From Cyanidioschyzon merolae (taxonomy: Eukaryota), in NCBI GenBank assembly GCA_000091205.1, contig AP006498.2: 64,000 bases of DNA; one strand, given 5' to 3'. The translations under genes were made by a program, and so were the position numbers. Positions 1,547-64,000 of the stretch are shown in pieces (the stretch's first letter is position 1; every line of letters starts with the position of its first letter). The notes beneath the pieces were generated by a model. It was not told where the DNA came from. It made no database searches and was given only the letters and a program-made list of their open reading frames with translations.

Positions 1547-2384
1547 TTCAGATATGGCGACAGCCTGATGCCCGGCCCTCCGCAATACCATTCTCGATGC
1601 ACTTCGAATTGCGGAACTACGTGCGAACAGCACGTGCGCGACCTCGTTCACAAGCAGTGCGATGTGCTGACCATCCCCGAAAAACCGCTGATACACGACG
1701 TAAAGCCACACGGCGAAAGCCTCTGAGCGTAGCTACCCCATGGGACGACATTGCGCACCGAGCAGGGAGTCAAGAACTTGCCCCGTCTACTCCGAGAAAC
1801 GAAATTGCATATGTGCGTTGCTGCAGACGCCTCCCGCCAATACCTGGCGAGTGCGGGAACGCATCCACGCTGACGAACACACGTTGTGCCGGTGCCATGT
1901 GATCCCGCATCACTTTATCGACTCATATTGTGGCATTCGAGACGCCGGATTCGCGATACCCTTTGTTTCCATACTTTGCATACCAGATGCAGCAGTGAAT
2001 GCAGCGCGGAATGATGCAGCGTGCACCTTTCTCGTCGAAAATCTCAATGACCACAGCTGCACGAGGCGCAGGCGTCCTTCACCCGCGTCCGATGCATATG
2101 GAACACGGAACGACTTGCCGGGTTCCTGAATGGAGTTTTTTTTGCGAAAGCTTTTCAGATGCACAGTTTCGAGAATCGCATCGCAGCAATTAGAGATGAT
2201 GGACGCAAACGTGGTCTCCGGATCCTCGCAAGCCTTCTCGGAATGGATCATATGACGCTTTGCAAATGGAACCTGGTTACGACACCGGAAGCGAGATGAA
2301 TCGCGATTTGTCGAATAACGCTTCGTAAATCAACCGATATCATTACCAAGTGCATTCTCGCAAGCATCAAAGCTTCTGCTGTTG

Positions 2385-2900
2385 TTTCCTTTTCGTGCAG
2401 CATGCTCAAAGCACGCATTTTTCAGGTTTCGATTCTTTTAGGCAACACGAGGGCGCAGCCATTGGAGCCATCCATTGACGACGAAAGAAAATCGATTTCG
2501 TCTCTTGACGACTCGTTCATTGGTTCATGCGGCAAGCACCTTGAACAAGTCATATCAATGAATCGACTCCGTTCGATAGCCGAATGCTCCTCTCCTCCTG
2601 GCCATTGATGAAACGATATTCCACGACAGTATGATGCCTCTGATGAGATATGCGCTGAGCGGCTCTCGTACGTGCTGGCTGCGTTTCACAGGATCTTGAA
2701 CTCGGACTTGAGTCATCCCAGCGATCGAGTAAGCGGAGAGTGCGTCGTCGCTTTACACGAACGGAGCATTGACGGATCGAAGGCATATCCAACATTCTAT
2801 TCTCCTGCAGCGGAGGCGCTCTTCCTCGCCCGGTCTAAACACCTTTTGCAGACTGACAATATGGGCGGACCTATATTCTGATAAGCGCCTCCTCGACAGA
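2385..2900 (+). mobile_element. TnpB/Fanzor-like element relic, copy I (internally deleted, degenerate)
   Basis: Head gcatgctcaaagcacgcatttttcaggtttcgattc is homologous to the heads at 10371, 60199 and 57988. Internal blocks (ttcattggttcatgcggcaagcaccttgaacaagtca; cattgatgaaacgatattccacga; gagtgcgtcgtcgctttacacgaacgg) match copies II/IV, but with about 250-bp internal deletions. No intact ORF. Confidence 0.45.
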
Positions 2901-4678
2901 GTCAATCTTCACGACAGTGCTGTTCCATAAACCTTATCATTGCAAATCGAACAAGACGTTTGGTATGGAGATCTGGATCGACCTCCAAAGCACATGTCTC
3001 TCATGTTGCTGCTGCTGCTGCTGCACGGTGTGTCAGTCAGCCGAAGATCGATGCGTCTATTGTTCGTGAAACAAAAATGTTTCATGACCCTGGCAGGTAT
3101 ACATTTACCCATTTACAGACGCCTTCCAGCCATTTTGGACCCGTCCCCTGCTACCGATTTCAGTTTCTCCTTGCACATCTCGAGCATGAGAGGCTGCCTC
3201 ACAAAGTCAGCTCGTGTCAGTTTTTCGGGTCTCGTCTTCAGTGCCACACATCTTCTGATACTGATGGCGGCTTTGAAGCCTCGGCTCACGTGCTCCATGC
3301 GTGCTCCCGCGCTGGTTAAACTTGCCGATGCAAGGATTCCACCGACTCGTGCCCGTTACGCTACTACAGTCCCGTCATCGGTCCGTCGAGGCGAACACTT
3401 TTTGCCGCCTATCTCCCCTCATGATCGTAGTCGTCGTCACTTGCTCTTCTTCGCTCGATACTCCGCGAGAAGAGGTTTTTTTCCTTGATTAGGCATCCGA
3501 GGATGACGGCCCTCCAGGATCCTCGACTTTTACGCACATACCTTTTCCTTAGATTTTTTTATTTATTCAGATGAACCCACTTCTTTATGCACATAGGTGT
3601 GGACCTACGCGGAGCGACTAGAACTTGTGGAAAAAAGAAATTATATGCCCGGCTTGCTACGGTGTGCTGAAAGCTCCAGCGATTCGTCCAGTGGAGCAAT
3701 CATGATACGTTTCACGATAGAAACTACGCCTTCGATTGAATTCAACCTCGGAGCGAATGGATTCATGAAAAGCAGCTCTACACGGTTGCATTCGCGAAAG
3801 CTCGAACGCAACGGGAATGGTGAAATGCCGCGTTGTCGAATAGGAGGACGTCGCCAGACGTCAGCGGAAAAATCCCCAATAATCCGTCGAAGTCGGTGCT
3901 GTTGTACGAGCCTCTTCTACGAGCGAAACTGAGGCGGCCAAATGGATCCACTCTATCTCGAACAGATGAAGGTATCGTCGTTCTCCTCGAGTTCAATCGT
4001 ACACACAACGATCCTTCTACTCTCCGCGAGTACCCATGTAGGGTCCGAACGTCCCGTCCGCAGCAAGTCTCAGCGACTGAAAAACACAAACCGACGTCTC
4101 CGTACAACATAACTATCGCGACGTTCCCGGAACGGTGTAGGTGCAATTTCGGTGAAAGATAGCCGTGGGTGAACTAGGACTCTCTTCTCTTGCGACGGTA
4201 TCCCAATGCTTCCAGAACCCAATGAATTAGTTATTGAGAACCGAAGAGAGCGCGAGAGAGACGCGTATGCCAACTAGAATCGTCGTTTTTGCTTTTCGTA
4301 AAGTGACCAACGGGTCGATTCCTACCGTTGACCAAAGGCACGCTTAGAGCACACTAGTTTTCGCGCAGTGCGCATCTACTTGTTTCTGTCAGTGCTCCTC
4401 AGCTATCAGAGTACTGTGGTATGACTGACCTGAATGAGGAATGCAGAGTCCCCCGCACCACTCAGTAAAGAATATATATCCTAGAGCCAATTCGTCTCCG
4501 ATCTATACAACGCATTGCACCGTAACGTCGACCTCCTGCCACACACTGCGAACTAGCATTCCATAAGAGGCAGTGGCGTTGGAACAACCTCTCGCTGGAC
4601 GCATCTAGCGAACTTCAACGTTCGACGCGCAAGGATTCCGGATGCTATTCTTGTACGCGTTCGTACTGCCGTCGAGGG

Positions 4679-6472
4679 ATGCTTTCACCCACACTTGCCG
4701 ACTCTTTGGCTCTTTTTGTAGGCTCTAAGTTGCCTGTTTGCATCGGGAATAGCGCAGGTGACCAACCTAGCCACCATTTTTGTACAGCAGGTGTTTACCG
4801 AAGGCAGGGAACGAGCAACTCAGCACGCTGGCACTCACGAAGAACCTCGGTTCGTCGGCCGCCACGCGCCTGCGAAGAGTTCGGTCCCCGAAAGACAGGG
4901 GGTAGTTTGCGTGATTCATCCAAAATTGACTCGAGTCATATTTATAATGTAGGGGCGCGAGACACTGCCCGCGACTTGTTCGAACTAGAACCCTTCATGC
5001 AAAACCTGAGAGAGATTTGCGAGGTCTTCGAGGGAAGCATCGCAGCAACCCTTGAGCGAAATCTTATGCTAACGCCTTCCATTGTTCTCATTCGACGCCT
5101 GCATCACAAAGCGATTCTTAACTTTTCGGAGCCGCGAGTTTTGGTACCCACTGCTGTTGCCGAGCAGGCCGCACCGTCAGACTTTGTGCAAGTTCCAGCA
5201 GTCTATGCTGTCCTGGACGGCCCGTCGTGGCGGTATGGTGAACCTTCCTACGAAGAAGAGAGTCTGCAAGATATTCCAATAGACCCGTCGAAGATCAAGC
5301 GCGTTCCGTTGGAGCCCAATGAACGTCGCCTCTATCCTTTTGCAGACTATGTCCTGCAGTACGGCGAAAAGCGCGTTCCGGTCCGCAGCGCTCCAATGGG
5401 GCGAATCGATCAAAAGCGCCTGCGTCGAAACCGTGTCTCCGTCCAGTATATTGGCACCAGTCCTAATGTGGCGCTTAGCGTTCGCCACCACTTGCAACGG
5501 TTCGGCCCCGATACTTGCCAGTTCGTGCGAGTGTGTGTGTTCCCTTCAATGGACGTAGCCAATATGGAGGCCCTGAAGCAGGCGTGGATAGCAGAGATCG
5601 GCTATACTCCTCGAGGAAATCGCACCCAAGATCCGGCGCTAGCCACGTATGTTCAACAGTGGCAAGCTGCTCACGAATGGCTCAACGGTGTGCATCAGTG
5701 TAGCAGCGAGCCGACGCCGCCTCGCAGCGAGCCCGCTGCACAACAAGCCGATGAGACGAACGATGAGGCGCAAGCGCCAACGATACCGTCCCGATCGAAT
5801 AACGTCGGCACAGGGACGTACCCGATGCCACCCGCGGAGGCCTCTGCGAACACGAACTCGCTTCCATCGAGCGCAGCGGAAGCCGCAGCTTGTAGCGGCA
5901 CCGAGGACGAGCAACGTGTCGTATCGCCGTTCCGTAACGAGTCCGTACAGGCTGGCGTCTGCAACGGCCCAGATACGAGGTTGCCGCTTAGTGTGACCAC
6001 GGTTGAGGCGGCGCTTTCGGAAGTTCGCCCGCTCCTCCAAAAAGATGGTGGTGACGTGCAGGTGGTAAGTGTGGATCCCGAGAACGCCACTGTGAGGCTC
6101 CAGTTCCTCGGTGCCTGCGCCTCATGTCCAGCACTGGAGGATACAGTTCGTTTTGGCGTGGAGATTGCTTTACGCAAGTACTTTGGCGAGGAACGCGTTC
6201 GAAACATCGAGCTCGTCCCGGTTACCGAATCCACGCTCTGGGAGCAGAACAACAAAAAACTACTCGAGTCGTGCGAGGTCGTTCTCGATGAGTTGCGGCC
6301 ATCGCTTTTCGCACAAGAGGCTGTTTTTGAGCTAGAGCGCGTTGAACGCGGCGTTCTTTACCTTCGATACAGCAGCTCTGATGATGTTCTGTACCAGATT
6401 TCGCGCATTATTTCCGAACGAGTGCGAGGCATTCTTCGAATCGATGCAAGGCCCTTTGACGACCATGAATAA
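4679..6472 (+). CDS. NFU: NFU-domain iron-sulfur cluster scaffold protein, plastid-type (NFU domain plus a degenerate second NFU-like domain); true start probably internal
   Basis: The C-terminal region carries the canonical NFU domain: ...LLQKDGGDVQVVSVDPENATVRLQFLGACASCPALEDTVRFGVEIALRKYF. A second, CxxC-less NFU-like repeat follows (VVLDELRPSLFAQEAVFELERVERGVLYLRY), as in plant plastid NFU1-3. An S/T/A-rich stretch upstream resembles a transit peptide. The N-terminal ~300 codons of the ORF are unrecognisable and may not be coding. Confidence 0.7.
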   Translation: MLSPTLADSLALFVGSKLPVCIGNSAGDQPSHHFCTAGVYRRQGTSNSARWHSRRTSVRRPPRACEEFGPRKTGGSLRDSSKIDSSHIYNVGARDTARDLFELEPFMQNLREICEVFEGSIAATLERNLMLTPSIVLIRRLHHKAILNFSEPRVLVPTAVAEQAAPSDFVQVPAVYAVLDGPSWRYGEPSYEEESLQDIPIDPSKIKRVPLEPNERRLYPFADYVLQYGEKRVPVRSAPMGRIDQKRLRRNRVSVQYIGTSPNVALSVRHHLQRFGPDTCQFVRVCVFPSMDVANMEALKQAWIAEIGYTPRGNRTQDPALATYVQQWQAAHEWLNGVHQCSSEPTPPRSEPAAQQADETNDEAQAPTIPSRSNNVGTGTYPMPPAEASANTNSLPSSAAEAAACSGTEDEQRVVSPFRNESVQAGVCNGPDTRLPLSVTTVEAALSEVRPLLQKDGGDVQVVSVDPENATVRLQFLGACASCPALEDTVRFGVEIALRKYFGEERVRNIELVPVTESTLWEQNNKKLLESCEVVLDELRPSLFAQEAVFELERVERGVLYLRYSSSDDVLYQISRIISERVRGILRIDARPFDDHE

Positions 6473-6857
6473 GCCGGTTGCAGTACGCTTGATCTGATTC
6501 GTCTAAAACGGATACATGATCGTTGACTAGACGCGAACTCGAACGGGAATCCGAGTATGCGTCATTGCCTCGAGTACGACATGTGCTCCATCTGCTGCTG
6601 CTGCTGCTGCTGCTGCCTGAAAGTCGCGAGCATGCTTTCAACGCCGAGAGTTACATCCCAGTCGACTATGCACACCAGAATCTGGGCAAGCGGACACTGT
6701 ATAAATATTCCGAGTTGGCGACACGTTCTCTGAAGCGCAATATGACTCACTTTTGCTGGAAAATCGACCGGTTCTGGCGACCTTCCGCTAAAATATACAG
6801 CATAAGCGTATCGAAACACGTCGCTTCCCGGCCTTGCCACGGACAAGTGAAACTTAC

Positions 6858-6905
6858 CTGCCTACCTATCTTCCTTCCTTCCTTCCTGCCTGCCTGCCTG
6901 CCGGC
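6858..6905. repeat. (CCTT)n(CCTG)n polypyrimidine tract
   Basis: ccttccttccttccttcctgcctgcctgcctgcc. Confidence 0.85.
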
Positions 6906-7777
6906 TCGCAGGTGCACAAACGACGTCTCTATCCAACAGTCGGGTGCCTCTGTTCGCCGCTTTGCTTTCGTGTGCGCCGACGAATACTTTCGTACCAAGT
7001 TTGTCGCCGGGGAACTTCAGGCATCCGGTCAAGCTTCCCGAGAGTCGGTCTGAGCGCAGCACTCGGAACGGACTCTGCCCTTCTGGGAGAGCTGGTTCCT
7101 TGCTGTCAAATGGCAATACGGAGCGCCCGCAGCTCCCGTCTGGAGGCCTTGGGGCCTCTAGGCTGTGCGCCGCTGAATGAACTTACAACGCAAACCACTG
7201 TTATTGTTTCCCTACGCAAGGATCAATTCATGTTCCTTCAGCTTCCGCAAGGCCGCTCTGCGTCTAAAGTCCCCGCAACTTTGCTACACTGCTCGCGACG
7301 CCTTGCTAGCTTGCACACCTAAAGTGTTCCTGTTCGAAAATAGTGCAGTTGCTATGACTCCCCGGTCCTTTGCATGCTCCCGAATACTGTTCTTCAGTGC
7401 TCGTGTATCCAGCTTGAGTGCCTGCAATAGCCAAGGGCCGTTGGGGACGTGCACCATCAGCGTCTAGCTTGCCCTCCTGACAGTGCGAGGGTACACAAGG
7501 GCTTGTCTCGGACCGCGCTTGAGCCTCCAACTGTAGGCCGCAGCCCCGTATGTGATACCACGATACCCTGACACGTCCCGTGAACACAGTCGTCACGTGA
7601 GCACCAAAATGCGTTACGTCCTAGCGTACGTCATAAACTGCTGCTTTTTCCGACGCTGCATACCGTGTCGTCGCATGCCAGCTGGCCAGGGAGGCGTCTG
7701 AGCGCCCGCCCTCACATGAACAGGCCGTTGTTCCACAGCGGCACCGTGCGTCGTTGTCTGCAGCGTGAAAACCTCCC

Positions 7778-10000: not shown

Positions 10001-10364
10001 CGAGCCAAGTGCGCTGCTGCGGAAGTGCTCCGAATGGCTTCGCAATAGCGCCCTGCACCTCTGTCAGATTCAAATGGAACACAAAACTGCTCGCCATGTT
10101 CCTGTGTTGAGGCTTTTTAACCAAAGTCTGTTCAGGCGCAGAGCCTCGACATGCGTAACGCAGCACAACGAGTTCAGGAATTCATGATTAGCTATAGGAT
10201 TCTAGGTCGTCGTTCCGGAATGGCTCATTGGATTCTTTCCCGCTGGAATTTATTGAGTCATTCACAGCAAATTGATCGGCGACGCCCTCGAACAAGAATT
10301 CGTAATAAAAAACTGATACCATGATCTAGTTTATTCGTACAAGCCGGGTATCATGTCCTCCTTT

Positions 10365-11300
10365 CCATATGTGGAGCACGCTCAAAGCATGCGTTGTTTG
10401 AGTTGTGGATCTTTCGGTTTCAAGAAAACTCGTGGGTGTGGCTAAGCGCGCAAGCGAATGGTCGACGATAAAAGCTCTCGATGTTGTCCCTTGGCGACTT
10501 GTTTACAAGCTCATGCGCAAAACTTCTCTGAACTTGTCACGTCAGGTCGTCGATAGCGTGTTTGGAAGACAAATTATTCAAACTTTGCGCCCATCCACGA
10601 ACTGTTACTCGATAACTTCATGAAACCGCTAACAGCAAATGGTCTCAAAGGTTCCTGTCTCTTCTACATGTGTGGAAGAGCGTCTTCGACTAGGGGTTTC
10701 GTCATCGCGGCGATCGCTCCCAGTGGAGCATGCGTCACCGCTTTGCAGAATGGGATCGCAGACGGATCGACATTACCCTGACTGGTTCTCCAGCGAAGAG
10801 TTTTCTTCCGATTCTTTTTCTCATCATGGACGAGATTCTTTTCTAGAGATCGTTGATTGTATCGGAGAGCATACCCGCCAACGGGATCGCAAAGAAGAAG
10901 CTCATGACATTAAGGTACGCTACAGGACCTGGATACAGACCAGAGCATTGAGTGCATCCTTCTGCAGCCGTACAGTGAATGTATCGAGCACTGGTGCAGG
11001 CTTTTTCGCGCCACAGGGTGGTCCTCGTAGGCTGCGGTGTGATGAACATATGGCAAGACTTGACCACCGTCAAGTGTCACAGCTGTGCAGCGCGCACCGA
11101 GGCTGTATTCAAAAAATATGAGAATGAGAAGCGAATCGTAGATCGCGCCTTGTTTGAGGGCATGACGTGCATCGACAACTGCCGGAAGCGACACAAACGC
11201 GACTTGGACGCTGCCATCAACATCCTGCGACAGCTGACAAACAGCTGGAGTCACATGTGAGACCAGCGTCTTGAAAGCCGGGGATCAGTGTGTGTGTGTG
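10365..11300 (+). mobile_element. TnpB/Fanzor-like element relic, copy II (head plus zinc-ribbon/RuvC-III tail; internally deleted)
   Basis: Head gcacgctcaaagcatgcgttgtttgag...ggatctttcggtttcaag. Conserved internal block gagctcatgcgcaaaacttctctgaacttgtcacgtcag. Tail ORF 10979-11260 encodes ...RVVLVGCGVMNIWQDLTTVKCHSCAARTE...MTCIDNCRKRHKRDLDAAINILRQL. That is a CxxC...Cx3C zinc ribbon immediately followed by the RuvC-III signature D-x-(N>D)-A-A-I-N-I of TnpB/Cas12/Fanzor nucleases. A (GT)n tract follows at 11284. Confidence 0.6.
10979..11260 (+). pseudogene. C-terminal fragment of a TnpB/Fanzor-like nuclease (zinc ribbon + RuvC-III motif), 93 codons
   Basis: KCHSC...CIDNC...KRDLDAAINIL compares with the TnpB consensus C-x2-C...C-x2-C...DRDxNAAxNI. 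No RuvC-I/II-bearing ORF lies upstream in frame. Confidence 0.55.
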
Positions 11301-12589
11301 TGTGAGTGTCTTTGACGTCGAAAAGCAAGCAGTGTCGAGAAAAGGCCCGAAAGGCTGGTGTTGATGACTCTCGGAAGATACGCTCACTAAAGCATGTGCG
11401 CTCAAGTTGGAGAAACTATCCCATTTTGTTCTGGCATATACATGGCAGACTGGCTGATAGTTCAGTGCCTATTTCTCAACAGCATTCCAATTGCTTGTTT
11501 CGAAAGTCATCGTGGAGCACCGAGTCCAATGGGAACGTCATGGAGTCAGCGACGTTTCCGACGTTTGCTGCTGCTCCAAGTCCATTCAAGGCATTTGTGC
11601 GTCCTGAGCACACCTCTGTAGAGCCCTCTCGTCCTTTTTCTATTCGGGTACGTGATCAACGACGTGGAAGCGAGCGAGGCAGCAATACCAAAGGCCTCGA
11701 CGGGTAACCTTGAGTTCAGGTGCCTCGAAAGCCACGTCCGCGTACGCGCTGAAGATCCCCCGAACGACGTCCTTGTCGCACCGAGTCTGGCACGAAGCGT
11801 TCGGTTTGAGTGCAGATGCCAGAAGTGCACGCGTCATACTTGGCGGCTCATGCTTATCATAGCCGACTACTCATGTTCTTGGGTGTGAAGCGTGGCATCA
11901 ATGACCGTGCGCTAACCGGATATCCGGCAGCGTTTGGTTGCCCTGCAACCCTACGACGTCCTCACAGGGCCTGCTCAGTGCCCTATGCATACTTTCTACC
12001 AGCGGGCAGCGAAAACCCAGCGCCATAGATCCGCAAAATCGAATACTGGTACGTGACGGACCCTGTCCGCCACGTGCTGTTCGTGGCTCAGGCGCAGGTT
12101 CAATCACACACAAGTCCCTGCAATATGCACCCACAGAACAAACCCCAACCGCGGACTGGTGCCTGCGTTCAAGACCGATCGCTCGCAGCCACGAGTCCCC
12201 AAACACCTACAAGCACACACCCATACCCTAACTGAGACTGATGAACCCGCCAACGAACCTGCGTTCCTCAATGCGGTGAGCCTCGCTCCGCTGCACGCAG
12301 CAAGTGCACGGGTACTGGAACGTCATCCCCAGTGCGCGCTGGCGGCTCGAGCCGCTGCTCCGTACGAAAACATCGCCCCCACTATAAAGCCAAGAAGCGT
12401 CCGCGAATCAAGCGAGGTTTCCATCCAGATCACCACTTCAAAGTCCACCTTCTGAGCGGTCTGAGTCGATGTACCAAGGCTCAACGCTAGTGGACGGCTT
12501 TTGAAAGCTCCGCAAAGACCGCCTCCGTCTGGGGCACGCGCTCGGCCGTTGCGAGCCGAGCCGGCGGGCCTGGTGTTCGTCAACGCTTC

Positions 12590-21883: not shown

Positions 21884-23715
21884 ACGGCACCGGTACTGAT
21901 TTATCATGAAAAAATCGAACGCAACACGATCAATTGCATTCAGCACTGAGGTCTATCATGAAAAAATCGAACGCAACACGATCAATTGCATTCAGCACTG
22001 AGGTCTATCATGAAAAAATCGAACGCAACACGATCGATTGTATTCGGCACTGAGGTCGATCATGAAAAAATCGAACGCAACACGATCGATTGTATTCGGC
22101 ACTCAGGTCTATCATGGAAAAATCGAACGCAACACGATCGATTGCATTCGGCGGTGAGGTCTATCTTGAAAAAATCGAACGCAACACGATCGATTGTATT
22201 CGGCACTGAGGTCTATCATGAAAAAATCGAACGCAACACGATCGATTGTATTCGGCACTGAGGTCTATCATGAAAAAATCGAACGCAACACGATCGATTG
22301 TATTCGGCACTGAGGTCTATCATGAAAAAATCGAACGCAACACGATCGATTGTATTCGGCACTGAGGTCTATCATGGAAAAATCGAACGCAACACGATCG
22401 ATTGTATTCGGCACTGAGGTCTATCATGAAAATCGAACGCAACACGATCGATTGCATTCGGCGGTGAGGTCTATCATGGAAAAATCGAACGCAACACGAT
22501 CGATTGCATTCGGCACTGAGGTCTATCATGAAAAAATCGAACGCAACACGATCGATTGTATTCGGCACTGAGGTCTATCATGGAAAAATCGAACGCAACA
22601 CGATCGATTGCATTCGGCACTGAGGTCTATCATGGAAAAATCGAACGCAACACGATCGATTGCATTCGGCACTGAGGTCTATCATGGAAAAATCGAACGC
22701 AACACGATCGATTGCATTCGGCACTGAGGTCTATCATGGAAAAATCGAACGCAACACGATCGATTGTATTCGGCACTGAGGTCTATCATGGAAAAATCGA
22801 ACGCAACACGATCGATTGCATTCGGCACTGAGGTCTATCATGGAAAAATCGAACGCAACACGATCGATTGCATTCGGCACTGAGGTCTATCATGGAAAAA
22901 TCGAACGCAACACGATCGATTGCATTCGGCACTGAGGTCTATCATGGAAAAATCGAACGCAACACGATCGATTGCATTCGGCACTGAGGTCTATCATGGA
23001 AAAATCGAACGCAACACGATCGATTGCATTCGGCACTGAGGTCTATCATGAAAAAATCGAACGCAACACGATCGATTGCATTCGGCACTGAGGTCTATCA
23101 TGGAAAAATCGAACGCAACACGATCGATTGTATTCGGCACTGAGGTCTATCATGAAAATCGAACGCAACACGATCGATTGTATTCGGCACTGAGGTCTAT
23201 CATGAAAAAATCGAACGCAACACGATCGATTGTATTCGGCACTGAGGTCTATCATGGAAAAATCGAACGCAACACGATCGATTGTATTCGGCACTGAGGT
23301 CTATCATGGAAAAATCGAACGCAACACGATCGATTGCATTCGGCACTGAGGTCTATCATGAAAAAATCGAACGCAACACGATCGATTGCATTCGGCACTG
23401 AGGTCTATCATGGAAAAATCGAACGCAACACGATCGATTGTATTCGGCACTGAGGTCTATCATGAAAAAATCGAACGCAACAAGATCGATTGCATTCGGC
23501 GGTGAGGTCTATCATGAAAAAATCGAACGCAACACGATCGATTGTATTCGGCACTCAGGTCTATCATGGAAAAATCGAACGCAACACGATCGATTGCATT
23601 CGGCGGTGAGGTCTATCATAGAAAAATCGAACGCAACACGATCGATTGCATTCGGCACTGAGGTCTATCATGGAAAAATCGAACGCAACACGATCGATTG
23701 TATTCGGCACTGAGG
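21884..23715. repeat. Minisatellite: about 35 tandem copies of a 52-bp unit with variant subtypes
   Basis: Unit aggtctatcatgaaaaaatcgaacgcaacacgatcgattgtattcggcactg, period 52. Variants differ at atcatg(a/g)aaaa, gattg(t/c)att and cggc(ac/gg)tgagg. Each unit contains the inverted repeat ATCGA-N11-TCGAT. The array ends about 290 bp upstream of the CDC45 ORF. Track ORFs 21986-23713 on both strands are artifacts of the repeat. Confidence 0.95.
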
Positions 23716-26111: not shown

Positions 26112-26778
26112 TGATAATTTGTATGAAGCAATGAGTACGTTTCCAGTCGTACATCGATTTAGGATTGTGCATCGGTGTTGTGGAGTGCTTTTTCAGAATA
26201 TTTTGCGGGCGGCATTCGTTCGTCATGAGAATGAAGATGATTCGTGACGCCCACCGCCTACGATTCCTGGAGTAACCGATAGGGCCGTCCAACGCACAGG
26301 TACAAGCCTCCACTCTTCTGCTTTCCCAAAGAGCAGTATACCCAGGTCACGCATGCTTCACGTTTTCGATACGTCTCTGTGGAGCGATACTTCATGGGTG
26401 AAGCAAGTTGCGCCGCTGCATGAGCAGCTCGAAGAAAGTCTTGTTCATCGTCATCCGTTGACGACTTGGTCACCCGCTCATGCCGAACGTTCACTGAACA
26501 TCGCACCTCAAGCAATCGACTCGGATCGAAACGCAAATCCTTTTCTCTTTGCGAGCATCGGTGAGCCTGCATGCCACTGCAGCATGATGCCAGCTCGAGT
26601 GCTATACTCGCAGCGGCTCCCGTGTATCGTGTTTGCGTGGAACATCGTTTTAGAGTTTATTCACCGCAGCGATCACTTGACATGGGGATTGCGTCAGCGC
26701 TCTATACGAAGCGAGCGTAGGCAGATTGAACGTTCTCGATTTCATCTGCAGCCTGGAATTTTCTTCCGATTCTTGCTC
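26112..26778 (+). repeat. Dispersed repeat, copy A (about 665 bp; about 99% identical to 37119-37780)
   Basis: Shared sequence runs from aatttgtatgaagcaatgagtacgtttccagtcg to cctggaattttcttccgattcttgct. The three embedded track ORFs are identical between copies. No TG..CA LTR termini, no clear TSD, no recognisable coding content. Confidence 0.9.
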
Positions 26779-28548
26779 TACCTTGGAAAAGATTGCGTTC
26801 CGCTGATCCCCTTCTCTTCCGGATAATATCATCGAACACAGGGTGGTTCATCCTCTGTTCTCCAGCTTATCTTCCGTGATTCAATACCATGGAGAACGTT
26901 TGCGGTACCGTGGACAACAAATTTAGCGAAGCAAATGCACGTTTCGATGCACCGGAACCTGCTCGATGCTTAGTGGTGCTCGACGCTTTGGGCACCGCGA
27001 CTGCGTCCACCGGGGCTCTTCGGAGCTTGTTCTACGAAATTCGTTGAGGTTTGCGGATCTCATATTTCCATCGAGTCATGAAACAAAGAGATGAACGAGC
27101 CACAAAGAATGAGTATGGATAGCTTGCTCATCTATGGCGGCACATAGCCCATGCACACCTGGCATGCTACGGATCCTACAGTTTACCCGCAACGCAGATG
27201 CCCTAAAGCGTTTCGAAAAGAGGTGCGCAGCTTTCGCTGAGAACGTCGCCATTGTCAGACGGAACGCCTGGCTGCGAGAAGCCCATCGCTTTTCTCTGAC
27301 GCTACGATAGTGAAGCGATCGCCTATGAGATACGAACGCTTGCGAGAACATAGACCTCGTGTAGACACATATGCACTTGTTCGAAGGATGCCCCAGCAAC
27401 GCGCTTGCCGCTATCCATGTTCGCGTACCCTGCTCCAAGCATAGATCGTTGCAGGAGCCAACGCGTCGCCACACCGTGTACCACGGAGGTCGTCTCAGGG
27501 ATCCTGATGCACAACGACCGTTACCAGCGTCGTTGTAGAGAAAGCGCAGCTCAGGCGCCGATGCACCACACTGCTGGTAGAGGTTTCCTCTGGAACGTAT
27601 GAACCCAACCCATGGACCAAGAACTGTGATCGTTCGCATATACCATCAGGCGGTCTTGTTCGCGTTTCGGCAGCTAGTGGAGGTGCACCCGTCTTGGGCA
27701 CGAAGTGTCGTCATTGTACACGAGGCCGCGCATGGCAAGTACGCCTGCAGAAGCTCCGCGTGAGCCATAGGGCATGCTGTCCCGCGTTTTTTACTCTGTC
27801 TGCTGGCACCATGCTGGGCTGCCTCGGCAGACACAGTCCGCGGATACAGATCTGGAGAATTCGCACTTGCAGATGAGTCTGTTCTGAGCGCCGGCACAGC
27901 GCGTTCTAGTTTACGATTCCCGTAGAAAGGAGGCGGTTGTGGGTGTCCCAACGAGCTGTCCGCCAGAGCGCCAGCGATCCGCAGTATTCGTTCATAGGCT
28001 TCCTGGACCTGCAGCACACACACACACACACACACGTGTCTCGTCGCTGGGATCGATATGCGCTTTGCACGAGCACCTGCGCAAATCACCTGGCGCGCTA
28101 CAAGTTCGCCAATGCGTTGCGGTTGCCTGCTCTGTCACAAGGCGGGATGCCATACATGGACGCACCTAGTGCATGCACGTCGTTCATGGTTCCTGGGTCA
28201 GCGTATTCGACCAGTACCCGTGCAGAAACCTGGAATCCGAGCAGATGTCGCATCTCAGGCAAGCTCCTGCAAAAGAGCATGCCATCAGTACCTCTGGATA
28301 CGTACGGATCACGATCTGTCTCTTGACAATCGCAGTCGACACGTCTGAATATGCAGAGCTGCGCTTTCGGGCATTGCGAGGCAGTCTCTCGCCAGTTGAC
28401 ATCATGCCAATACTGCCTCCTGCGACATGTGAAACGCGGGTGTCCGCCTCGACCTCGTCGCGAGTGCTGAACTAAATCGTTCCTACTTCATCGGGAGTCT
28501 CTTGACTCCACTGTATGTCGGCTACTGGCCTCGGATGCGTCCAGTGCT

Positions 28549-30050: not shown

Positions 30051-30349
30051 TTCAACGCAGGCACTTGTCCTCTCTTGCTACAGGCTTGCAAGAAAGCGAC
30101 AATATGCTGAACTGGTCGATGAGTTCGTGCTTTGTAATCCTTTTCCGAGAGCTTAGTGGATATACAGCCTCTGCATACAAAGTATATACATAAAGGTTAC
30201 TTGTATATCTACTGTTGTAGGTTTCTCGATTGTCGTCTCGGAGTTGCCCTATCGAAGGTTGGCGTTTGGAACTTGTTTCATCACCGGAAACCAGATAATT
30301 CGCGACGCACGCAAACAAGTGTTTCTAATGTAACCGATATCACTATCCA

Positions 30350-32600
30350 ATGTATATATTCATGCCTCCATGCTTCTCGTTTGACAACGTGTACCGTATT
30401 GCAACCGTGCATTGCTCCAAGACTTCGATCGCTCGCATGAAGTCAACTTGTGGACGGAGCGACTCGCACCGAAGCGTAGACGACTAGAGGTCTCGATATC
30501 GTCCGTATCGTCTTGTGCATACGCTCATGTCGAAAATTCAGTGAATCACTCCCGTTGAGTGATAGTCGATTCCGTTCGAACAATGAGCGCTCTGCGCGTT
30601 ATGGCGACAGACAGAACGGGCGTCGATGACAGCTGCAGCAGCATGATATCTGTCATGGGATATGCTGCCAGAGGCTCCCGTCTCTTCTATTTACATCGCA
30701 ATAGGACCTTGAACTCGGGTGTCAGGCATCACAGCGATCGCTCCCATTTGAGCATGCGTCATCGCCTTGCATGACGGTATTGCTGGCGAAAAAGGAATCA
30801 CTGGGACCCCGGCATCGTCTGAGTATCCGGATCCAGCGACGCGTGACGGATTCGATGACGTGGAGACGATTAAGCGACGACTCGGTTGCCAGTCTGCACG
30901 GGATGAAGGAGTTTTTCATGAATGGAGCTTCGGCAAGGCCCAGCGGCTCGAATGATAGCGAGCGCTTGATGAGCCTCCATCGTAGATTCTTCGAAAGCGT
31001 ACACGCTGCGTAGAAAATCGACCAGCTGCTTACGAGCAACACGTCTGCGAAAGCGATGGTGCCGAGTTGTCTGGAGCGGTGCTCCGGAGCCCCTGGCGCG
31101 TCGAGACATTCGACTTTTCCGAACGCATCTTTCCCTCGAACTTATCAGCGTCTCGATTCGCGCCTATTTCGTTTCGTTGGGGACGGGCGCCCGCACGACA
31201 GCGCGAGTCCGATACGACCGATGGAGAGCAAATGCGTCGAAGAAGCAGACGAGGAACTAATCGAAGACATCGAGTGTATGAAGCGAACGAAGCACTTTTC
31301 GCTCTGACATTCGATGCCACTTATGGATCACTGGGGGAACAAAGCCCCACGGAATGCAATGCAAACTGCGTATTAGAAGTGAAAATTAAGCCATAGGAGT
31401 TTCGTATGAAGGCGAGTAGACCAAGTGACTTCCTTCAAGATCGATGGCGTTGGCGTATCCATCGTCATCAACAGTGATTGACGTAAACGCAAAACGAGCT
31501 CTTCAGGGCTCAAACATACAGCGGCTCAAAAAAGGAAATACAAGGAAGCGCAACGAGTAATACAGATTTGCGACCTCATGAGCTTGCCCTCCAATTTCAT
31601 CAGTATCGTCATGGACGCGGGAGAGCGACCCTCTACACATGCGCTCTCATTAGACTCGAAGCGGAGAACGACGCTCCCCTCAATGATAATCGACGACGAC
31701 GCTTTGGAGGCACGAGTTTCGAACTCTCCGACTTGTATCTGAATTCGCAAGCTGTGCGAGTGCGCTTGTCATCTTCGTGTCAGCGGACGCGAACAAATGG
31801 AAAACTAGTATGATGGGCGATCGCATCATATCTGAGACTTTCATGCCTTTGTTTCATTTTCACAAACGAGAGGAACTCGCCGGTATCATGCCCACGAGTC
31901 GTTTAGGCGCCCCGATAGCCGTTACGCGCATCGCAACGTGTTGTGAGAAAAAACGCGGAAAAACGAAGAACGTACAAGGAAGCGGGTCGTGAGTTATCGA
32001 ACGGAACACCATGCCCTTGTTCGTTGAACAGACTGGAGCCTCTCCGAGCGTATCGTCGAGAAGAAACCCGTAATGATAGGATAGGGTACGATACTAGGCG
32101 CGCAACCGGATGGTGCAGGCATCGACTGGTGCCTTCTGTACCCGTCAACGGTATGTTCCGAGCGACGAAGCGAGCATTCCCGTTTCACAGGCCGGCACGC
32201 GCAGAGCAATGAAGTGTGGTGGACATACGGGAATCCCTGCTCAGAGACAAGCGCCACCGCTGGGAATTGCATATCGAGTCCATAGACAAGGAACACGCGA
32301 ATGGCAAACGAAGCCAAGTATGTACCGACTGCCTGTGCATGAACGACGTCTACAACAGCAGAAAGCGTCGAAATCGGGACGTTCACGCTGCCGTCCGAAT
32401 CCTTCGTGTGCTGTTAACGGCACATGAATGCAACGAGAGATCACCGTATGCATCGCCGAAGAGAAGCGCGAGCAAAATGAATCAGGTACAAAGAAGCCCT
32501 TAAAGGCGGGTGCTGTCGACAGTGGAACGCTCCCCAAACCTAAGCGCGTACGTCCGAGCTAGCCAAGCAGACCTACCACATTGTAAGCTGACACGACTCG
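30350..32600 (+). mobile_element. TnpB/Fanzor-like element relic, copy III (longest, about 2.2 kb, heavily degraded)
   Basis: Head catgcctccatgcttctcgtttgac. Internal blocks gctcatgtcgaaaattcagtgaatcac, cagcgatcgctcccatttgagcatgcgtcatcgccttgca and gaaggagtttttcatgaatggagc match copies II/IV. Tail ORF 32216-32503: ...SQVCTDCLCMNDVYNSRKRRNRDVHAAVRILRVLL (gacgttcacgctgccgtccgaatcc matches gacttggacgctgccatcaacatcc). About 200 bp further on, gtaagctgacacg is shared with copy IV at 61226. Only short ORFs remain. Confidence 0.5.
32216..32503 (+). pseudogene. Degenerate C-terminal fragment of a TnpB/Fanzor-like nuclease (RuvC-III-like RDVHAAVRIL)
   Basis: CTDC...NRDVHAAVRIL. The second Cys pair of the zinc ribbon is lost. 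Confidence 0.4.
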
Positions 32601-33160
32601 AATAGAAAAGGCATCGGAAGTGTAAATTGACCAGGTGTGGCATCGCAGGAGCGCTGATCCCCAAGGCGAGAAGCGCGCGACGGCACCCCAGCATCTGTTC
32701 TGAAGCGATACGCCTTGAACGCGCTACCAGGATATCAAACGTTATCTGCACGAAACTCGCAGCACCCAGCATACATTGTACTTTGTAACGTGCTGTGCTG
32801 TGCTGTGCAACGCCCTGATCAGTATCCGGCGTGATCGCCTCTGGACTCCTCGAACAGCGCTGGAGGTGCAGTTTCCTCGAATCTTGGACCGCTGGAGCCG
32901 CTCTTCTGGGCCGCTTGACTACGCTCACTGAGGCATTTGGGTGCACCTGGGTTCTGCGAGCGAAGACTACATGAAATCGGGCAGAAACGAACAGGGGGCA
33001 TGTTTCATCGCCTACGCTACAGCTTTCGCCTCTAACCCGCTGTGTGACTACTTGCCAGTCTACTCGACAAAGCTGGTTCCTCTTACCATAGAGACCTTCG
33101 GTAAAGAGCGCACTTGGCTCAGCCTACGTGGTTGAAGCAGTGCTGTAGCCGCGAGATAAG

Positions 33161-33400
33161 GCAGCTACAACCAAACTCGCATCGCTGAACTGCATTGCAT
33201 CCAAGAGGAAACCGTTGTTGTTTGCTTGCGAATAGGAGCGGCTTCATTCCAGTATAGACTTCTTACACTGTGACGAACAGGCAGCTACAACCAAACTCGC
33301 ATCTCTGAACTGCATTGAATCCAAGAGGAAACCGTTGTTGTTTGCTTGCGAATAGGAGCGGCTTCATTCCAGTTTAGACCTCTTACACTGTGACGAACAG
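33161..33400. repeat. Two-copy 120-bp tandem duplication
   Basis: gcagctacaaccaaactcgcatc.ctgaactgcattg.atccaagaggaaaccgttgttgtttgcttgcgaataggagcggcttcattccagt.tagac.tcttacactgtgacgaacag occurs twice with 4 mismatches, about 365 bp upstream of the GT64 ORF. Confidence 0.9.
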
Positions 33401-35981: not shown

Positions 35982-37118
35982 ATTGGTGGACATCGGCGCA
36001 TCCCTGCTGCTTTCCGGTGTCATGATGATGAGGTCGCTCGGGCGAATCACCATAGACCGTCGTGAAAATGGAGCACGTGCTGTGCTTTGCTCCACCGACG
36101 CCGTTTCAGCTTGAGGGAAGCGCTGAATGATGGTGCACAGGCCTCGTTTCCCTGTGGTGTGATGGGGCTTCGTTTCGTACCTGCCGGTTTACGAACAGAA
36201 TGCGCTGCATCGCTCGTGACTTGTGATCTTGCCGAAGCGCTGGGCTCCTCGATGGTAACCGGACACACATGGGCTGCAGCAGCAAGGTCCGAACCGACCC
36301 CAATGCGTAAATCCATGCTCGAAAGCGTACATTCATATCTGGGTACATAAGTATGCGCCAGCGTCGATGCTTGTGCGTCCATGCGAACGATCCATTCATG
36401 TAGAGACGAACACACTCGTATATGCAGGCCCGCTTTCAGATCCTACATCGACTTGAAATGGGAACATTTTGCAGCGCTACGCCTGGAGCATTGAATGACG
36501 CCCATCATTGCAGGCGGTATCGCTAGCTGGCGAACAGGTAACGCCGCTCGAGCGAGTCTTCGGATACACTGACAATGGGATGCGTTGATCTAGAGCACTG
36601 GCTGACGTTTGAAAAGTCGCTGGCCATCCTGATACTCCCTGGTGAGACGACACGCGTTTGGTCTTGCACGTTACCTATTCAATGGCAGTGGAGGCGCGAC
36701 GAAACCCGCCCTCAAACGTAACCTGAGACGTGAGTCAACGCGCGCCAGCTTCTGTTGAGCATCTCATGCATGTTCAGATAGCATGCTCCACAGATACCGT
36801 GTGAAGGTTCCTGAAAAATCGTCCATTTTCCAGGTCAGTTCGTTTTGTGCTTCACGAAACTGAGTGAAAATGACGTGCCGGCTGGTCGATGTTCAGCATC
36901 GGGAAGAGTTCTTTGCTGGGCGTCGACCTGTATTTAGTTAGTAGGCCAGGATGGATGCGTCGAACAAAATGCGGCAGCGGAGCGCAGTGCGCAAATTCGA
37001 CTTGAACGCTCACAGCGTCCTACACCTGCTTCAGATAGAAATTGAAAAGTACATTGAGCGCTGTGTTCCTGGCTTGATATTCTGTTACGAGCGTTTGTCG
37101 ATGATGAACAGTTTCGAC

Positions 37119-37780
37119 AATTTGTATGAAGCAATGAGTACGTTTCCAGTCGTACATCGATTTAGGATTGTGCATCGGTGTTGTGGAGTGCTTTTTTAGA
37201 ATATTTTGCGGGCGGCATTCGTTCGTCATGAGAATGAAGATGATTCGTGACGCCCACCGCCTACGATTCCTGGAGTAACCGATAGGGCCGTCCAACGCAC
37301 AGGTACAAGCCTCCACTCTTCTGCTTTCCCAAAGAGCAGTATACCCAGGTCACGCATGCTTCACGTTTTCGATACGTCTCTGTGGAGCGATACTTCATGG
37401 GTGAAGCAAGTTGCGCCGCTGCATGAGCAGCTCGAAGAAAGTCTTGTTCATCGTCATCCGTTGACGACTTGGTCACCCGCTCATGCCGAACGTTCACTGA
37501 ACATCGCACCTCAAGCAATCGACTCGGATCGAAACGCAAATCCTTTTCTCTTTGCGAGCATCGGTGAGCCTGCATGCCACTGCAGCATGATGCCAGCTCG
37601 AGTGCTATACTCGCAGCGGCTCCCGTGTATCGTGTTTGCGTGGAACATCGTTTTAGAGTTTATTCACCGCAGCGATCACTTGACATGGGGATTGCGTCAG
37701 CGCTCTATACGAAGCGAGCGTAGGCAGATTGAACGTTCTCGATTTCATCTGCAGCCTGGAATTTTCTTCCGATTCTTGCT
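37119..37780 (+). repeat. Dispersed repeat, copy B (about 99% identical to 26112-26778)
   Basis: Same as copy A; one single-base indel (ttttcag versus ttttttag). Confidence 0.9.
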
Positions 37781-38727
37781 TGACCACATAATACATCGCG
37801 TTCCGTAAATCCTCCATGGAATCGAACAGCATGCGCGCATGTATTCAGCGGACCGAGCTCTTGCCTCGGGGAATGCTCTGAAAAAGCCCGGGATAGCAAG
37901 GTAGTGCACCGGGCACGGAAAGGAAGCAAGGCATCCTGGTTAGCACTCTGTATCCGTCAAGCGCTTGTACAGAGCAATGACTCAATCAATGAAGCGCTAC
38001 AGGGCGACAATCGGGGGCGTATATGCGATCCACACAGGGGAAGCCTCGAACGCGGGCACGTTTCATCGTTGCGGAAGGTAAACCGAGGCTGTATACATAG
38101 CAGATGGGCCCGGCAAGCGAAGCGAATACCGCAAGGCCCATCTGTGCATGACATAAGTCGACAACAGCCGGAATCTACAAAATCGCAAGTCTAATCCTGT
38201 CATCAATATCCTTCGACTGTTGGTAACCGAGCTTGAGGGAAAGGAAATACCTGCGTTTTGAGAGCCTGAGACGAGATGGAAGAAAATGAAGCAGTCGCAG
38301 AAATTGCCCCCAACGCCTGGTGTTCATCACTGTGGAATGTCATGCAAACTTTGATCTGTACGTCGGTGATCGTGGATCCATTCCATTCTATGCAGGCGCG
38401 GTTATCAACAGACCCTGAGAGCAAGCTCAGGTGTTAGGATGACCTCCGCCTGACTCGTGTACCCCAAACGCACATGCACGCCTTCTGGGACGTTGCGTGC
38501 ACGCATGCCATGCAGGATCGATATATCTACTTATATTCATAAAAATGTAGATATATTTAGATAAGTTCAGATTGTCGAGTTAACCCCCCAATGGAGCACG
38601 CACCCGCGCAGGGGCAGAGGCCTTCGTCAGGCCTGTTGTTGTATGGTGCAACAGTACCTCAACGCTAACGCCATGCACTTGTAACAAACGTACTGCACTC
38701 GGATACCTCAGTATCACGTTATTCTTC

Positions 38728-39216: not shown

Positions 39217-40761
39217 GGTCCGCCGACCTGAGCGCTCCCGCGCTACCGAGAATACTTGCCCCTCTCAGCGGGAACAGAGCACGGCCGGGAGTCCGGACGT
39301 TCTGTTTAAAGATAGGAAAGTAGGCATTGCGTGTTCTCAGGGGGCCTGCCTTGCAGTAATGGCTGAGGCCGTCGCGTTTCTCGCGTACCCCAGGCGGAAA
39401 CGCCTCGACAACGGCGCATCAGCCCATACATACGCATACGCCCCAGCTGAATGTAAATTTTAGCCCATGCGTAACCTGCTCCCGCGTAATGGAGTGTGCT
39501 TTACCGACCAAGAGGCGGGCTTTAGCGTTGCATGAGCTGAACGCGATTCCCCGCAAACAACGCCCACACCCTGAAACTGAAAAGTCGTGCCTCCGTTTTG
39601 CGGAGACTGGCGCGGATGGACAACAATAGCCGTGTGCTCATTCCAGCGACAACATGCACCACCGGATAGTCTAGAAAGTAGCGCTCGGGTGTGATCTGGA
39701 CGCAGTCGCGGTGCGCCTAGCATCCGAAGCTACGAATGGACGACCAGTGATCATTGTATCGGGTTCAGTCAAATCCGGCAGATGCCCGACCGACCACAGG
39801 ACCAAAACACACTCCGAATCCGTCAATACGAGTTGTCACACCGGTCAGCAAACGTGCGCGATAATGGCAAGTAGGTGAGACCTGTTCTCGATGCATGCAC
39901 AGTGCAGCCGTATGGAACTGGAAACCGACACCTTCATCTTCACACACCCATCGCTTTCCTCGACATCATCCTTGACCGCAAAAGTCCATCAAAGGAGGCT
40001 TGAAAGGTGCGACGTGACTTGGTACAGGCAAGTACGTAAAGAGCGATTCAGTGTCTTGAGGATACTCAGTCGTATCGAATCGTGGAACACCATGAATGTT
40101 CACCAATTGCTTGGGAAAGTCGCGTTCCCTCTGCTTGTGCTGGGCGCTGCAGCCTTTCTGGATTGCAGACCGCTGCCATACCAGTGTCGTGCTCAAGGTG
40201 CGAATCCAATCCAAACTCTCTCCTGGTCTCTGAGTTTTCTTGCATCGACATGCTGCAGCGTTTCAGTACAAGGCCCGTACTGTGCACTGAACGATGCCCT
40301 CGAACGCTCGCTCGACACAAAGCCGCTGCACGCTCCTGAAGAACAAGTCTCTCGCGCGTGTTGATCATGACGTTCTAGTTGCGATGCGTACAATGCATAT
40401 GCGCACTGTTACAGGTGGAGACACAATACCAGAGCAAGCTGCAGAGCTTGGATTGCCTCTCCATCCGAGGTTCAGTCAGCTTAGCGTGCACCGTCTGGTG
40501 CAGCGTTCTCCGTTCGACTGCCTTTTTCCCTATTTGTTTCGGAACGCATTCGTTCTCGTGATGTGTGGACGTCTGCCTGAGCGCACGGACGGCAAGCTTA
40601 CGGCATCGATTCATGTGCTCGGTGGACGCTCTCCTCGACAGGGCGGAAACGCAGGCTCTGCGCAGGATGGCACGTCGGATGCCACAGGCGACCTCCAAAG
40701 CGCACGACCTGACGGTCATTTCCATCGCAAATTATTCAAGAAAGTGACGAATATACGCTTC

Positions 40762-41397
40762 TTACCTCCGCACAATCGAGCCCGTTGTCGATCCGATCGC
40801 ACGCTCATAAAGTCCTGCCACGAGTCGTCCGCATGAGACATTCGAACGCTCATGCGCTCTCTCGACGAGCCATACAAAAGAGTTCCATCTGCTCGCTAGG
40901 GTGCAGAGAGCGTCGAGAAGAGCCCTGACGCGGTCATTCCTTTCGCTGGCATGCCTCGTTGCGCCCATGGTGTCCGACTCTGGATAGTACCGAGCTGCGG
41001 AAATTTTGAGCAGCTTCATCTGCGTTCCGCTAAGACCCGCATCTCCTTCCTCTTCATTTTGAGGTACCAATACAGCAGCGATCTTGCGCAACCCGGGATT
41101 CACGCTCACAAAAAAGTTTTTCTCTTCATCCACCCGAATGGATTGCACATGAACCATTTTACCCTGCTGGATCGTTTCCGGCACCGGCACTGCTCTTGTC
41201 CCGATCGCCAACGTTGCCACGCAGCAGCTCAAGGTATCCCGGGAAGCGGCTGAGCAAATCATCGATCCTGAGACTAGAACGTAACGCGTTGTGTGTCCCG
41301 AGCGTCCGACTCGTTGTCGCATGCAGATTTCGCTGAGAAAAAACTCTCGAGGAGCGTCGACAGCTGGCAGCTCTGCGTCCGAAACGCCCACGAACAC
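40762..41397 (-). CDS. Hypothetical protein, 211 aa (no recognisable domain)
   Basis: Single ORF in an otherwise ORF-poor stretch. The segment GTRAVPVPETIQQGKMVHVQSIRVDEEKNFFVSVNPGLRKIAAVLVP looks like a beta-rich, OB/KOW-like fold, but no family match could be made by eye. Confidence 0.3.
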   Translation of the reverse strand: MFVGVSDAELPAVDAPREFFLSEICMRQRVGRSGHTTRYVLVSGSMICSAASRDTLSCCVATLAIGTRAVPVPETIQQGKMVHVQSIRVDEEKNFFVSVNPGLRKIAAVLVPQNEEEGDAGLSGTQMKLLKISAARYYPESDTMGATRHASERNDRVRALLDALCTLASRWNSFVWLVERAHERSNVSCGRLVAGLYERAIGSTTGSIVRR

Positions 41398-51643: not shown

Positions 51644-52167
51644 CAGGTGCATCGAAAGCTCGCTGGCGACGCTGCGAGCCATGTCAACGTGTCGAGAGGC
51701 TTATTGCTTGTTCCGAAAGAAGCTGGATCTCGTTTCCGCCCCGCGGGAAGTGCATCGTGCACCAGAAGCGGCATCGCAGGTATTCTGTGCGATGGACGGA
51801 TGCGGGGCTTTGGCGTTTCCACAAACTCAGCGCTACTAAAGGTAGACGGGCTGACATTGCTGCCTCGCGCGCGCTCTGCGTCAAGTCCGTTCGTTGTGAT
51901 TGTGGCTGGTTCCGAGAAGCGCGTGCTACCACACGTGGACCCTTCAGTGTCACCGCCGATTTTGCGGAGAGCATTCCAATGAACTTGGCGGAGCAGAGCT
52001 TTCGGCGACCTCGACGTTCGCGAGCGTGCGGCATCGCTGTCTCTGCTCCGCTGAGCTCGGCGTTAACCGTAGGTGTGGCGCACGAGAGGTCGCTGGACCT
52101 AGTAAGTCTCTATTCGTAAATTGGAGGCGATTCATGGATGAATGGAATGCTCAGGCGTTGATACAGA

Positions 52168-63542: not shown

Positions 63543-63612
63543 GCGTCAAACGTCGCATAGGCAGTGTACAGGGGGGGCGAGCGGCGCCCCCCCGCCTCCC
63601 CCGCCCCAGACA

Positions 63613-63999: not shown

Positions 64000-64000
64000 C

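Follow-up and report, generated by a model that had tools for sequence, protein, structure and literature searches.

A dead 1.38-kb transposon copy in the nuclear genome of Cyanidioschyzon merolae 10D, very probably derived from a mariner-type element with a Fanzor1 gene

What kind of element left the degraded, repeated coding sequence at positions 10,365–11,300 of a 64-kb stretch of contig AP006498.2 (GCA_000091205.1; the whole stretch is hereafter called the window)? The original prediction, made from the sequence without database searches, had read it as one member of a dispersed family of decayed TnpB/Fanzor-like nuclease genes in a eukaryotic, probably algal, genome. The algal host was confirmed, six open reading frames (ORFs) of the window being exact, full-length matches to annotated proteins of Cyanidioschyzon merolae 10D (BAM81896, 81897, 81900, 81901, 81902 and 81905), encoded on a chromosome of 908,485 bp. 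C. merolae is a single-celled red alga whose genome is very compact and poor in introns. We conclude with high confidence that the flagged segment is a dead 1.38-kb non-autonomous transposon copy in the nuclear genome of this strain, derived from a parent that combined a mariner-type transposase with Fanzor1. That parent would have been an element of ~3–3.6 kb of the IS630/Tc1-mariner type, bounded by terminal inverted repeats (TIRs) of ~26 bp, in which a DDE_3 transposase gene was followed, in tandem and on the same strand, by the gene for Fanzor1 (the eukaryotic TnpB homologue, a RuvC nuclease with a zinc ribbon). One internal deletion would have cut out the final third of the transposase together with the N-terminal ~500 residues of Fanzor1. 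It would have spared the TIRs, the 3′ non-coding end, the N-terminal part of the transposase (helix-turn-helix (HTH) and first two catalytic Asp) and the C-terminal ~190 residues of Fanzor1 (with the RuvC-II Glu, CxxC...CxxC and the RuvC-III motif NRDxNAAINIL). The resulting short form would then have multiplied, its copies decaying later.

The proposed dispersed family is real. The window holds six copies (A–F), all on the plus strand, as had been stated, and all intergenic between host genes. Comparisons limited to the six extracted copy regions gave DNA identities of 58–61% over 0.6–1.37 kb in gapped pairwise alignments, with short blocks reaching 68–77%, and E-values of 1e-17 to 1e-91 in an all-against-all search; this similarity is far beyond chance. 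Four copies had been listed before and their loci stand, while two (C and D) had been missed. The limits, refined here from multiple alignments and termini (TIR alignments), are collected in Table 1; those given earlier for the flagged copy B began ~300 bp and ended ~140 bp too far inside it, and the locus at about 2385–2900, taken for a copy with head and tail, is copy A, which has no tail. Copies A and C are 3′-truncated. The former ends at the alignment column at which the head of copy E stops as well, with no detectable Fanzor remnant beyond it; the transposase of the latter possibly extends to about residue 285 (weak match at 26862–26972).

Copy B consists, in order, of the 5′ TIR, the transposase remnant, a deletion junction near 10860–10890, the C-terminal remnant of Fanzor1, ~180 nt of 3′ non-coding DNA and the 3′ TIR. 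At 11285–11312, its 3′ non-coding end is interrupted by a (GT)n microsatellite and adjoining bases, an insertion found in none of copies D, E and F. Copies C (26113–26777) and D (37116–37780) have in common a tract of ~665 bp with one mismatch, although the family sequence flanking it on both sides is only ~60% alike; for two copies 11 kb apart, this pattern points to ectopic gene conversion and not to a new transposition. Several copies start 20–130 bp past the stop codon of a plus-strand host gene (B after 9922, C after 26002 and F after 59744).

Table 1. Coordinates in the window of the six family copies, of the coding remnants within them and of fragments of the CMe-1 type
Feature	Coordinates	Strand	Description
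Copy A	2080–2781	+	5′ TIR and transposase remnant only
Copy B (flagged)	10056–11442	+	Complete short form, 1387 bp; alignable with D and F over its full length
Copy C	26024 to ~26972	+	5′ TIR and transposase remnant, without Fanzor part
Copy D	37023–38404	+	Complete short form, 1382 bp
Copy E	30081–32599	+	Long form, 2.5 kb; ends in 3′ non-coding DNA and TIR
Copy F	59873–61250	+	Complete short form, 1378 bp
Transposase remnant, copy B	10135–10860 (approximate limits)	+	First ~245 codons, putative IS630/Tc1-mariner-type DDE_3
Transposase remnant, copy E	to 30794	+	Joined to Fanzor1 pseudogene
Transposase remnant, copy F	60383–60735	+	Match to DDE_3 protein of L002
Fanzor1 C-terminal remnant, copy B	10892–11257	+	Full-length Fanzor profile positions 527–638, E 2.3e-22
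Fanzor1 pseudogene, copy E	30825–32497	+	From ~residue 187 to the end
Fanzor tail, copy D	37824–38300	+	Profile positions 509–664
Fanzor tail, copy F	60660–61145	+	Profile positions 507–663; frame of 169–173 codons still open
CMe-1A/CMe-1 fragments	63631–63996, 3116–3355, 40294–41127	−	Match to published consensus/protein

The assignment of the tails to TnpB/Fanzor was borne out. The peptides quoted in its support are present (KRDLDAAINIL in the ORF at 10979–11257, RVLGAAINI at ~61030–61060 and RDVHAAVRIL at ~32390–32420). In copy B, the first of these is the RuvC-III motif; it is accompanied by a RuvC-II region (VMNIWQDLTT, with Glu changed to Gln) and a zinc ribbon (CHSC ... C..NC), and the frame is kept open over the last 93 codons (10979–11257), two in-frame stops lying upstream of 10979. 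The suggested search with PF07282 (Cas12f1-like_TNB, formerly OrfB_Zn_ribbon) gave 25.5 bits (E 1.5e-5) for the tail ORF of copy B, just below the cut-off of 26.3 bits, and scores above it for consensus tails, namely 32 bits for a four-copy consensus and 30.3 bits for the 12-copy consensus described below. A score that rises as the consensus is rebuilt is the behaviour expected of a decayed homologue. Comparison by hhalign of a tail profile with Fanzor1 C-termini, aligned from the supplement of Bao & Jurka 2013 (PMC3627910), returned a probability of 98.9% (E 2.9e-17) over 99 columns, which cover RuvC-II, the zinc ribbon, RuvC-III and a trailing RP motif.

With HMMER, 1.84 billion representative proteins were searched exhaustively, which yielded 362 relatives, 106 of them below 1e-10, the full-length ones being 680–800 amino acids (aa) long, e.g. 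P0082 (756 aa, E 1e-60). A full-length Fanzor profile built from 13 relatives is colinear with copies E, B, D and F. Searched against the PDB, the same profile matched only two sequences, the solved Fanzor1 of Parasitella parasitica (9cf0, E 4e-15) and Fanzor of Spizellomyces punctatus (8gkh, E 9e-6), both distant in sequence from the window lineage. The long-form copy E was matched by hmmsearch in two parts (profile positions 187–546 at 30825–32120, E 1.8e-28, and 529–666 at 32069–32497, E 1.1e-12), and tblastn with P0082 agrees on this span. With many stops, copy E keeps remains of the TDG motif (IDGVGVSIV) and of RuvC-I (MDAG), which align with TDGvgvSiv and DPG of the profile, as well as of RuvC-II (VVDIRES) and RuvC-III (NRDVHAAVRIL). 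In the window, TDG and RuvC-I remains occur only in this copy, both having been deleted from the short form (B, D and F). The catalytic Asp of RuvC-III (consensus NRDLNAAINIL) is retained in B and E and lost in D (NRKSNPVINIL, with five in-frame stops in the tail) and in F (NRVLGAAINI, where the second Cys pair of the zinc ribbon has gone as well). The RuvC-II Glu, in the context V-D/N-E-x-x-T-S/T followed by CxxC, is present in the consensus, which reads VVDIWEHLTTAKCHRC ... CMKC; some of the Cys residues are missing from D, E and F.

The PF07282 scores, the hhalign result, the full-length relatives, the colinear mapping and the PDB matches lead us to identify the tails, on homology, as C-termini of Fanzor1. 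The RuvC-III motif is short, and on that ground one could take the AAINI segments for an unrelated host zinc-finger gene family with a fortuitous likeness to RuvC-III. The profile matches are significant over 110–360 colinear positions, reaching beyond the motif, and those in the PDB are to Fanzor1 only; they rule out a closer kinship with a host family, and the probability that we attach to such an origin is negligible.

The head had been correctly recognised as common to the copies; it does not belong to the Fanzor gene and, judged by its homologues, is a TIR followed by a truncated DDE_3 transposase. From its ATG onwards, the head consensus aligns with residues 1–92 and 150–239 of P0148, an intact protein from another organism, and with residues 124–226 of the DDE_3 protein of L002, an intact metagenomic element (both are described below). 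PF13358 (DDE_3) matches the 12-copy consensus with 41.7 bits (cut-off 28.6); since only profile positions 3–117 of 146 are covered, the third catalytic residue is deleted. An earlier translated head consensus had given weak matches to DDE_3 and HTH models. The HTH region of the head (FGVAPSTLCRWN) aligns with P0148, which itself matches HTH_28, HTH_23 and HTH_Tnp_IS630. Other identities of the head were tried and rejected. In copy E it stands at the place of Fanzor residues 1–186 and could have been the missing N-terminus; searched with the full-length Fanzor profile, neither the individual heads nor their consensus gave a match in any frame. Nor was a relationship with the head of CMe-1A or TE-N2_CMe, published for C. 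merolae, detected by nhmmer or tblastn.

In a metagenome scan, at least nine further copies were found on at least eight loci, each matching the model of B, D and F end to end over 1.33–1.38 kb. A consensus of 1376 bp was derived from 12 copies (B, D, F and nine metagenomic ones). Its first frame (MYSLDIR...FGVAPSTLCRWN...VAIDETAF...FIMDNIAFHK) has a single stop and its second (MEQRALACAADRV...VVDIWEHLTTAKCHRC...CMKC...NRDLNAAINIL...RPAYL) is open to its stop codon, the two halves joining out of frame near FHKSS/ILYRMEQ. The consensus ends in a 26-bp inverted repeat, CATCTGTGTCAGATGAAAATGGAACA versus CACACATGTCAGAATAAAATGGAACA, with 20 of 26 positions matching; 100,000 random 26-mers drawn from the element never attained this score, and the repeat resembles the TIR of L002. 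Alignments of the TIR in individual copies were too noisy, and it was resolved only with the 12-copy consensus. B, D, F and at least nine metagenomic copies have the same deletion junction; all of them go back to a single derivative, internally deleted and non-autonomous. The short form (~1.38 kb), which retains the last ~190 of ~700–750 Fanzor residues, kept both TIRs and was then amplified. Copy E carries a separate, smaller deletion, by which transposase residue ~205 is joined to Fanzor residue ~187.

All copies had been described as pseudogenised, and rightly so: every copy in the window is a pseudogene, and none can act as a nuclease now. Copies B, D and F are 72–75% identical to the consensus (75% for B), from which each coding part differs by one to five in-frame stops and up to nine frameshifting indels (range 0–9). 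As a test of coding constraint, the substitutions that distinguish B, D and F were checked for periodicity by codon position, and none was seen in any part; this, together with the stops and frameshifts, accords with neutral decay once the copies had inserted. Four metagenome strains of 99.3% identity carry copy F at the same site, which makes it a fixed, old insertion; a constraint test against these strains had too few differences to work with at such identity.

Could the short form nevertheless have been kept for a function, as a domesticated two-part gene (the DNA-binding part of the transposase plus the Fanzor C-terminus) or as an intergenic cis-regulatory module? One would then point to P0148, an intact 449-aa in-frame fusion of both parts in another organism, to the 169-codon tail frame of copy F, which is open and conserved in strain-level relatives, and to the six copies on one strand, most of them just downstream of plus-strand genes. 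Against this stand the stops and frameshifts of B, D and F, the loss of catalytic residues in several copies, the lack of codon periodicity and the out-of-frame halves of the consensus. The strain comparison is, at 99.3% identity, powerless to show constraint, and the junction of P0148 lies ~24 residues off that of the C. merolae short form, which indicates an independent deletion. We consider a retained unit of this kind highly improbable. A related proposal is that a truncated transposase (HTH and two of the three catalytic residues) and the RuvC-II/zinc-ribbon/RuvC-III part of Fanzor1 may form a recurrent, selected module with a function of its own and not be a mere product of deletion; such a module might regulate or inhibit transposition, or serve as a DNA-binding factor. 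This proposal keeps a small probability in our assessment because the combination arose at least twice with different junctions (the short form and P0148), the short form is the amplified variant and both halves of the consensus are open.

The decayed, non-autonomous derivative that we prefer has intact relatives outside the window. P0082, P0089, P0095 and others, with the element L002, show direct homology to the tails, at E-values down to 1e-60. They share the conserved motifs TDGVGVSIV, DPGR, VWEHxTTxKCxxC and RNRDFNAAINIL, and their genes are intact, in contrast to the pseudogenes of the window. L002 is an intact DDE_3 transposase and Fanzor1 element at 4013–7158 of a 46.5-kb ENA metagenome contig; its 310-aa DDE_3 gene stands immediately upstream of the Fanzor gene P0095 on one strand, and its ends are 34-nt TIRs starting CAC(A)CCT, with TA flanks on both sides. 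P0148 is encoded at 516–1865 of L003, a 2-kb Logan contig; residues 1–243 are an IS630-type transposase (HTH and DDE_3 matches) and the rest is a Fanzor C-terminus.

L002, the best-characterised of the intact relatives, has giant-virus-like neighbours (D5_N primase-helicase, PriCT_2 and Endonuclease_7), and algal giant viruses are known to hold Fanzor-bearing mariners. The copies might on these grounds be remains of integrated DNA of a nucleocytoplasmic large DNA virus (NCLDV) and not a cellular transposon family. Each copy in the window, however, is alone among ordinary host genes and has its own TIR-defined ends with no viral genes adjoining, and at least 12 copies with one deletion junction argue for amplification by transposition. 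We therefore regard a viral origin of the copies as very unlikely, while a virus may have been the vehicle by which the element was first delivered.

A transposon of this layout has precedents. Fanzor1 inside Tc/mariner elements with TA duplications was described in 2013 (Bao & Jurka, PMC3627910); PUl-1 and PUl-2 of Pythium ultimum and PGv-1 of Phaeocystis globosa virus are TIR elements with a mariner-like DDE transposase followed by Fanzor1, and L002 has the same layout. The window copies differ from them in being old, dead and mostly a 1.38-kb deletion derivative, and TA duplications are reported for the PUl and PGv elements. Bacterial TnpB of IS200/IS605 and IS607 likewise contains the RuvC-II, zinc ribbon and RuvC-III module (PF07282), and differs in having Y1 or serine TnpA as its partner instead of DDE_3 and in being shorter, without the long N-terminal region of Fanzor1.

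The closest comparison by host is CMe-1A, known from ~150 copies in C. merolae, with a 3169-bp consensus, a 734-aa protein and no TIRs, and left unclassified (PMC3627910). Could the copies simply be diverged members of this CMe-1A/TE-N2_CMe family? Genome and protein superfamily are the same, decay is similar (CMe-1A copies are also ~80% identical to their own consensus), and the CMe-1A head, too, occurs separately from the rest. The CMe-1A consensus, however, has BLASTN matches only on the minus strand at 63758–63996 and 3116–3340 and none to the six copies, and amino-acid identity in the C-terminal region is only ~30%; CMe-1 protein matched the tail of copy F weakly (33% over 57 aa, E 0.078). 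The nhmmer model of our head finds nothing in CMe-1A, whose head has no similarity to DDE_3, and the window family has TIRs, which CMe-1A is reported to lack. Membership in the published family is thus most improbable. With no DNA match to any copy and tails only ~30% alike in amino acids, the comparison with CMe-1A indicates that the window family is a distinct lineage of a kind known since 2013.

Several observations weigh against the derivation of the short form from a mariner-type Fanzor1 parent, or against parts of it. No autonomous or intact copy of the lineage occurs in the window or among the nine metagenomic copies listed, and for this species the parent is a reconstruction. The mariner transposase of PUl-1 has no significant similarity to our head, so that the link to PUl-1 is one of architecture, not of sequence. 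A T stands beside the ends in 9 and 10 of the 12 copies, respectively, and a full TA in only a few; a TA target-site duplication is plausible and not demonstrable. In the 3′ non-coding end, which is ~180 nt long and conserved in blocks, a conserved RNA fold is not convincing (weak consensus fold of −4.8 kcal/mol with 14 pairs), and Rfam at gathering thresholds gave zero matches in the whole window. An intact progenitor was not found among named proteins either. The annotation of C. merolae seems to omit such ORFs, as relatives of CMe-1 are absent from it too, and absence from the proteome accordingly says nothing about intact copies.

By analogy with known Tc1/mariner systems, the parent would have moved by cut-and-paste through its DDE transposase, and the full-length enzyme would also have acted in trans on the short form, cutting and pasting it at TA. 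The solved Fanzor1 proteins are RNA-guided RuvC nucleases; the right end of the transposon encodes their omega-RNA (Saito et al. 2023, PMC10432273). By extension from TnpB/Fanzor systems, an omega-RNA made from the element's 3′ end would have guided the parent Fanzor1, whose DNA cutting would have favoured retention or spread of the transposon; we infer the omega-RNA part from these systems.

The window as a whole has a GC content of about 50–59% and no tRNA genes according to ARAGORN; outside the family copies, it contains remnants of the CMe-1 type as well. The CMe-1A fragment at the window end is 86% identical in DNA to consensus positions 2733–2971 and runs off the window, and the stretch at 40294–41127 corresponds to CMe-1 residues 422–700 at 27% identity, with stops. 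All remnants of this type are on the minus strand and all six family copies on the plus strand; the explanation may be a bias in insertion or retention, or chance (for the six, about 1 in 32). A DDE_3-type transposase remnant at 3787–4095 on the minus strand (E 1.4e-6 with a two-sequence profile) directly adjoins the CMe-1A-type tail at 3116–3355, also on that strand, and hints at a possible mariner-borne past of the CMe-1 lineage as well. The head of the CMe-1A consensus shows no DDE_3 similarity. At 63543–64000, around the terminal CMe-1A fragment, the window differs from the four metagenome strains of 99.3% identity (loci L004–L007) by 30–48 differences per kb, compared with at most 12 elsewhere; conversion among the many CMe-1A copies or mixing in assembly are possible causes. 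Other repeats comprise a tandem array at 21902–23715 (35 units of 52 bp, a period that is not a multiple of three, with 96% matches and a locally AT-richer GC of 0.47) and two intergenic tandem duplications, at 33159–33400 (120 bp × 2, 97% identity) and at 52167–52429 (95 bp × 2.8, 93% identity).

The practical value of these findings is modest, and the window itself contains no usable nuclease; the rebuilt consensus, with P0082, P0089, P0095 and L002, offers starting points for Fanzor1 nucleases related to those of acid-hot-spring algae. For the biology of the host, the 1.38-kb non-autonomous derivative would have been the main form in which the lineage spread, although one survey reported no miniature inverted-repeat transposable elements in this genome (PMC3964958). 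It can be classified as IS630/Tc1-mariner with TIRs, where CMe-1A was left unclassified in 2013. To judge from these remnants, the compact genome of C. merolae holds, besides CMe-1A, a second and older lineage of Fanzor1.

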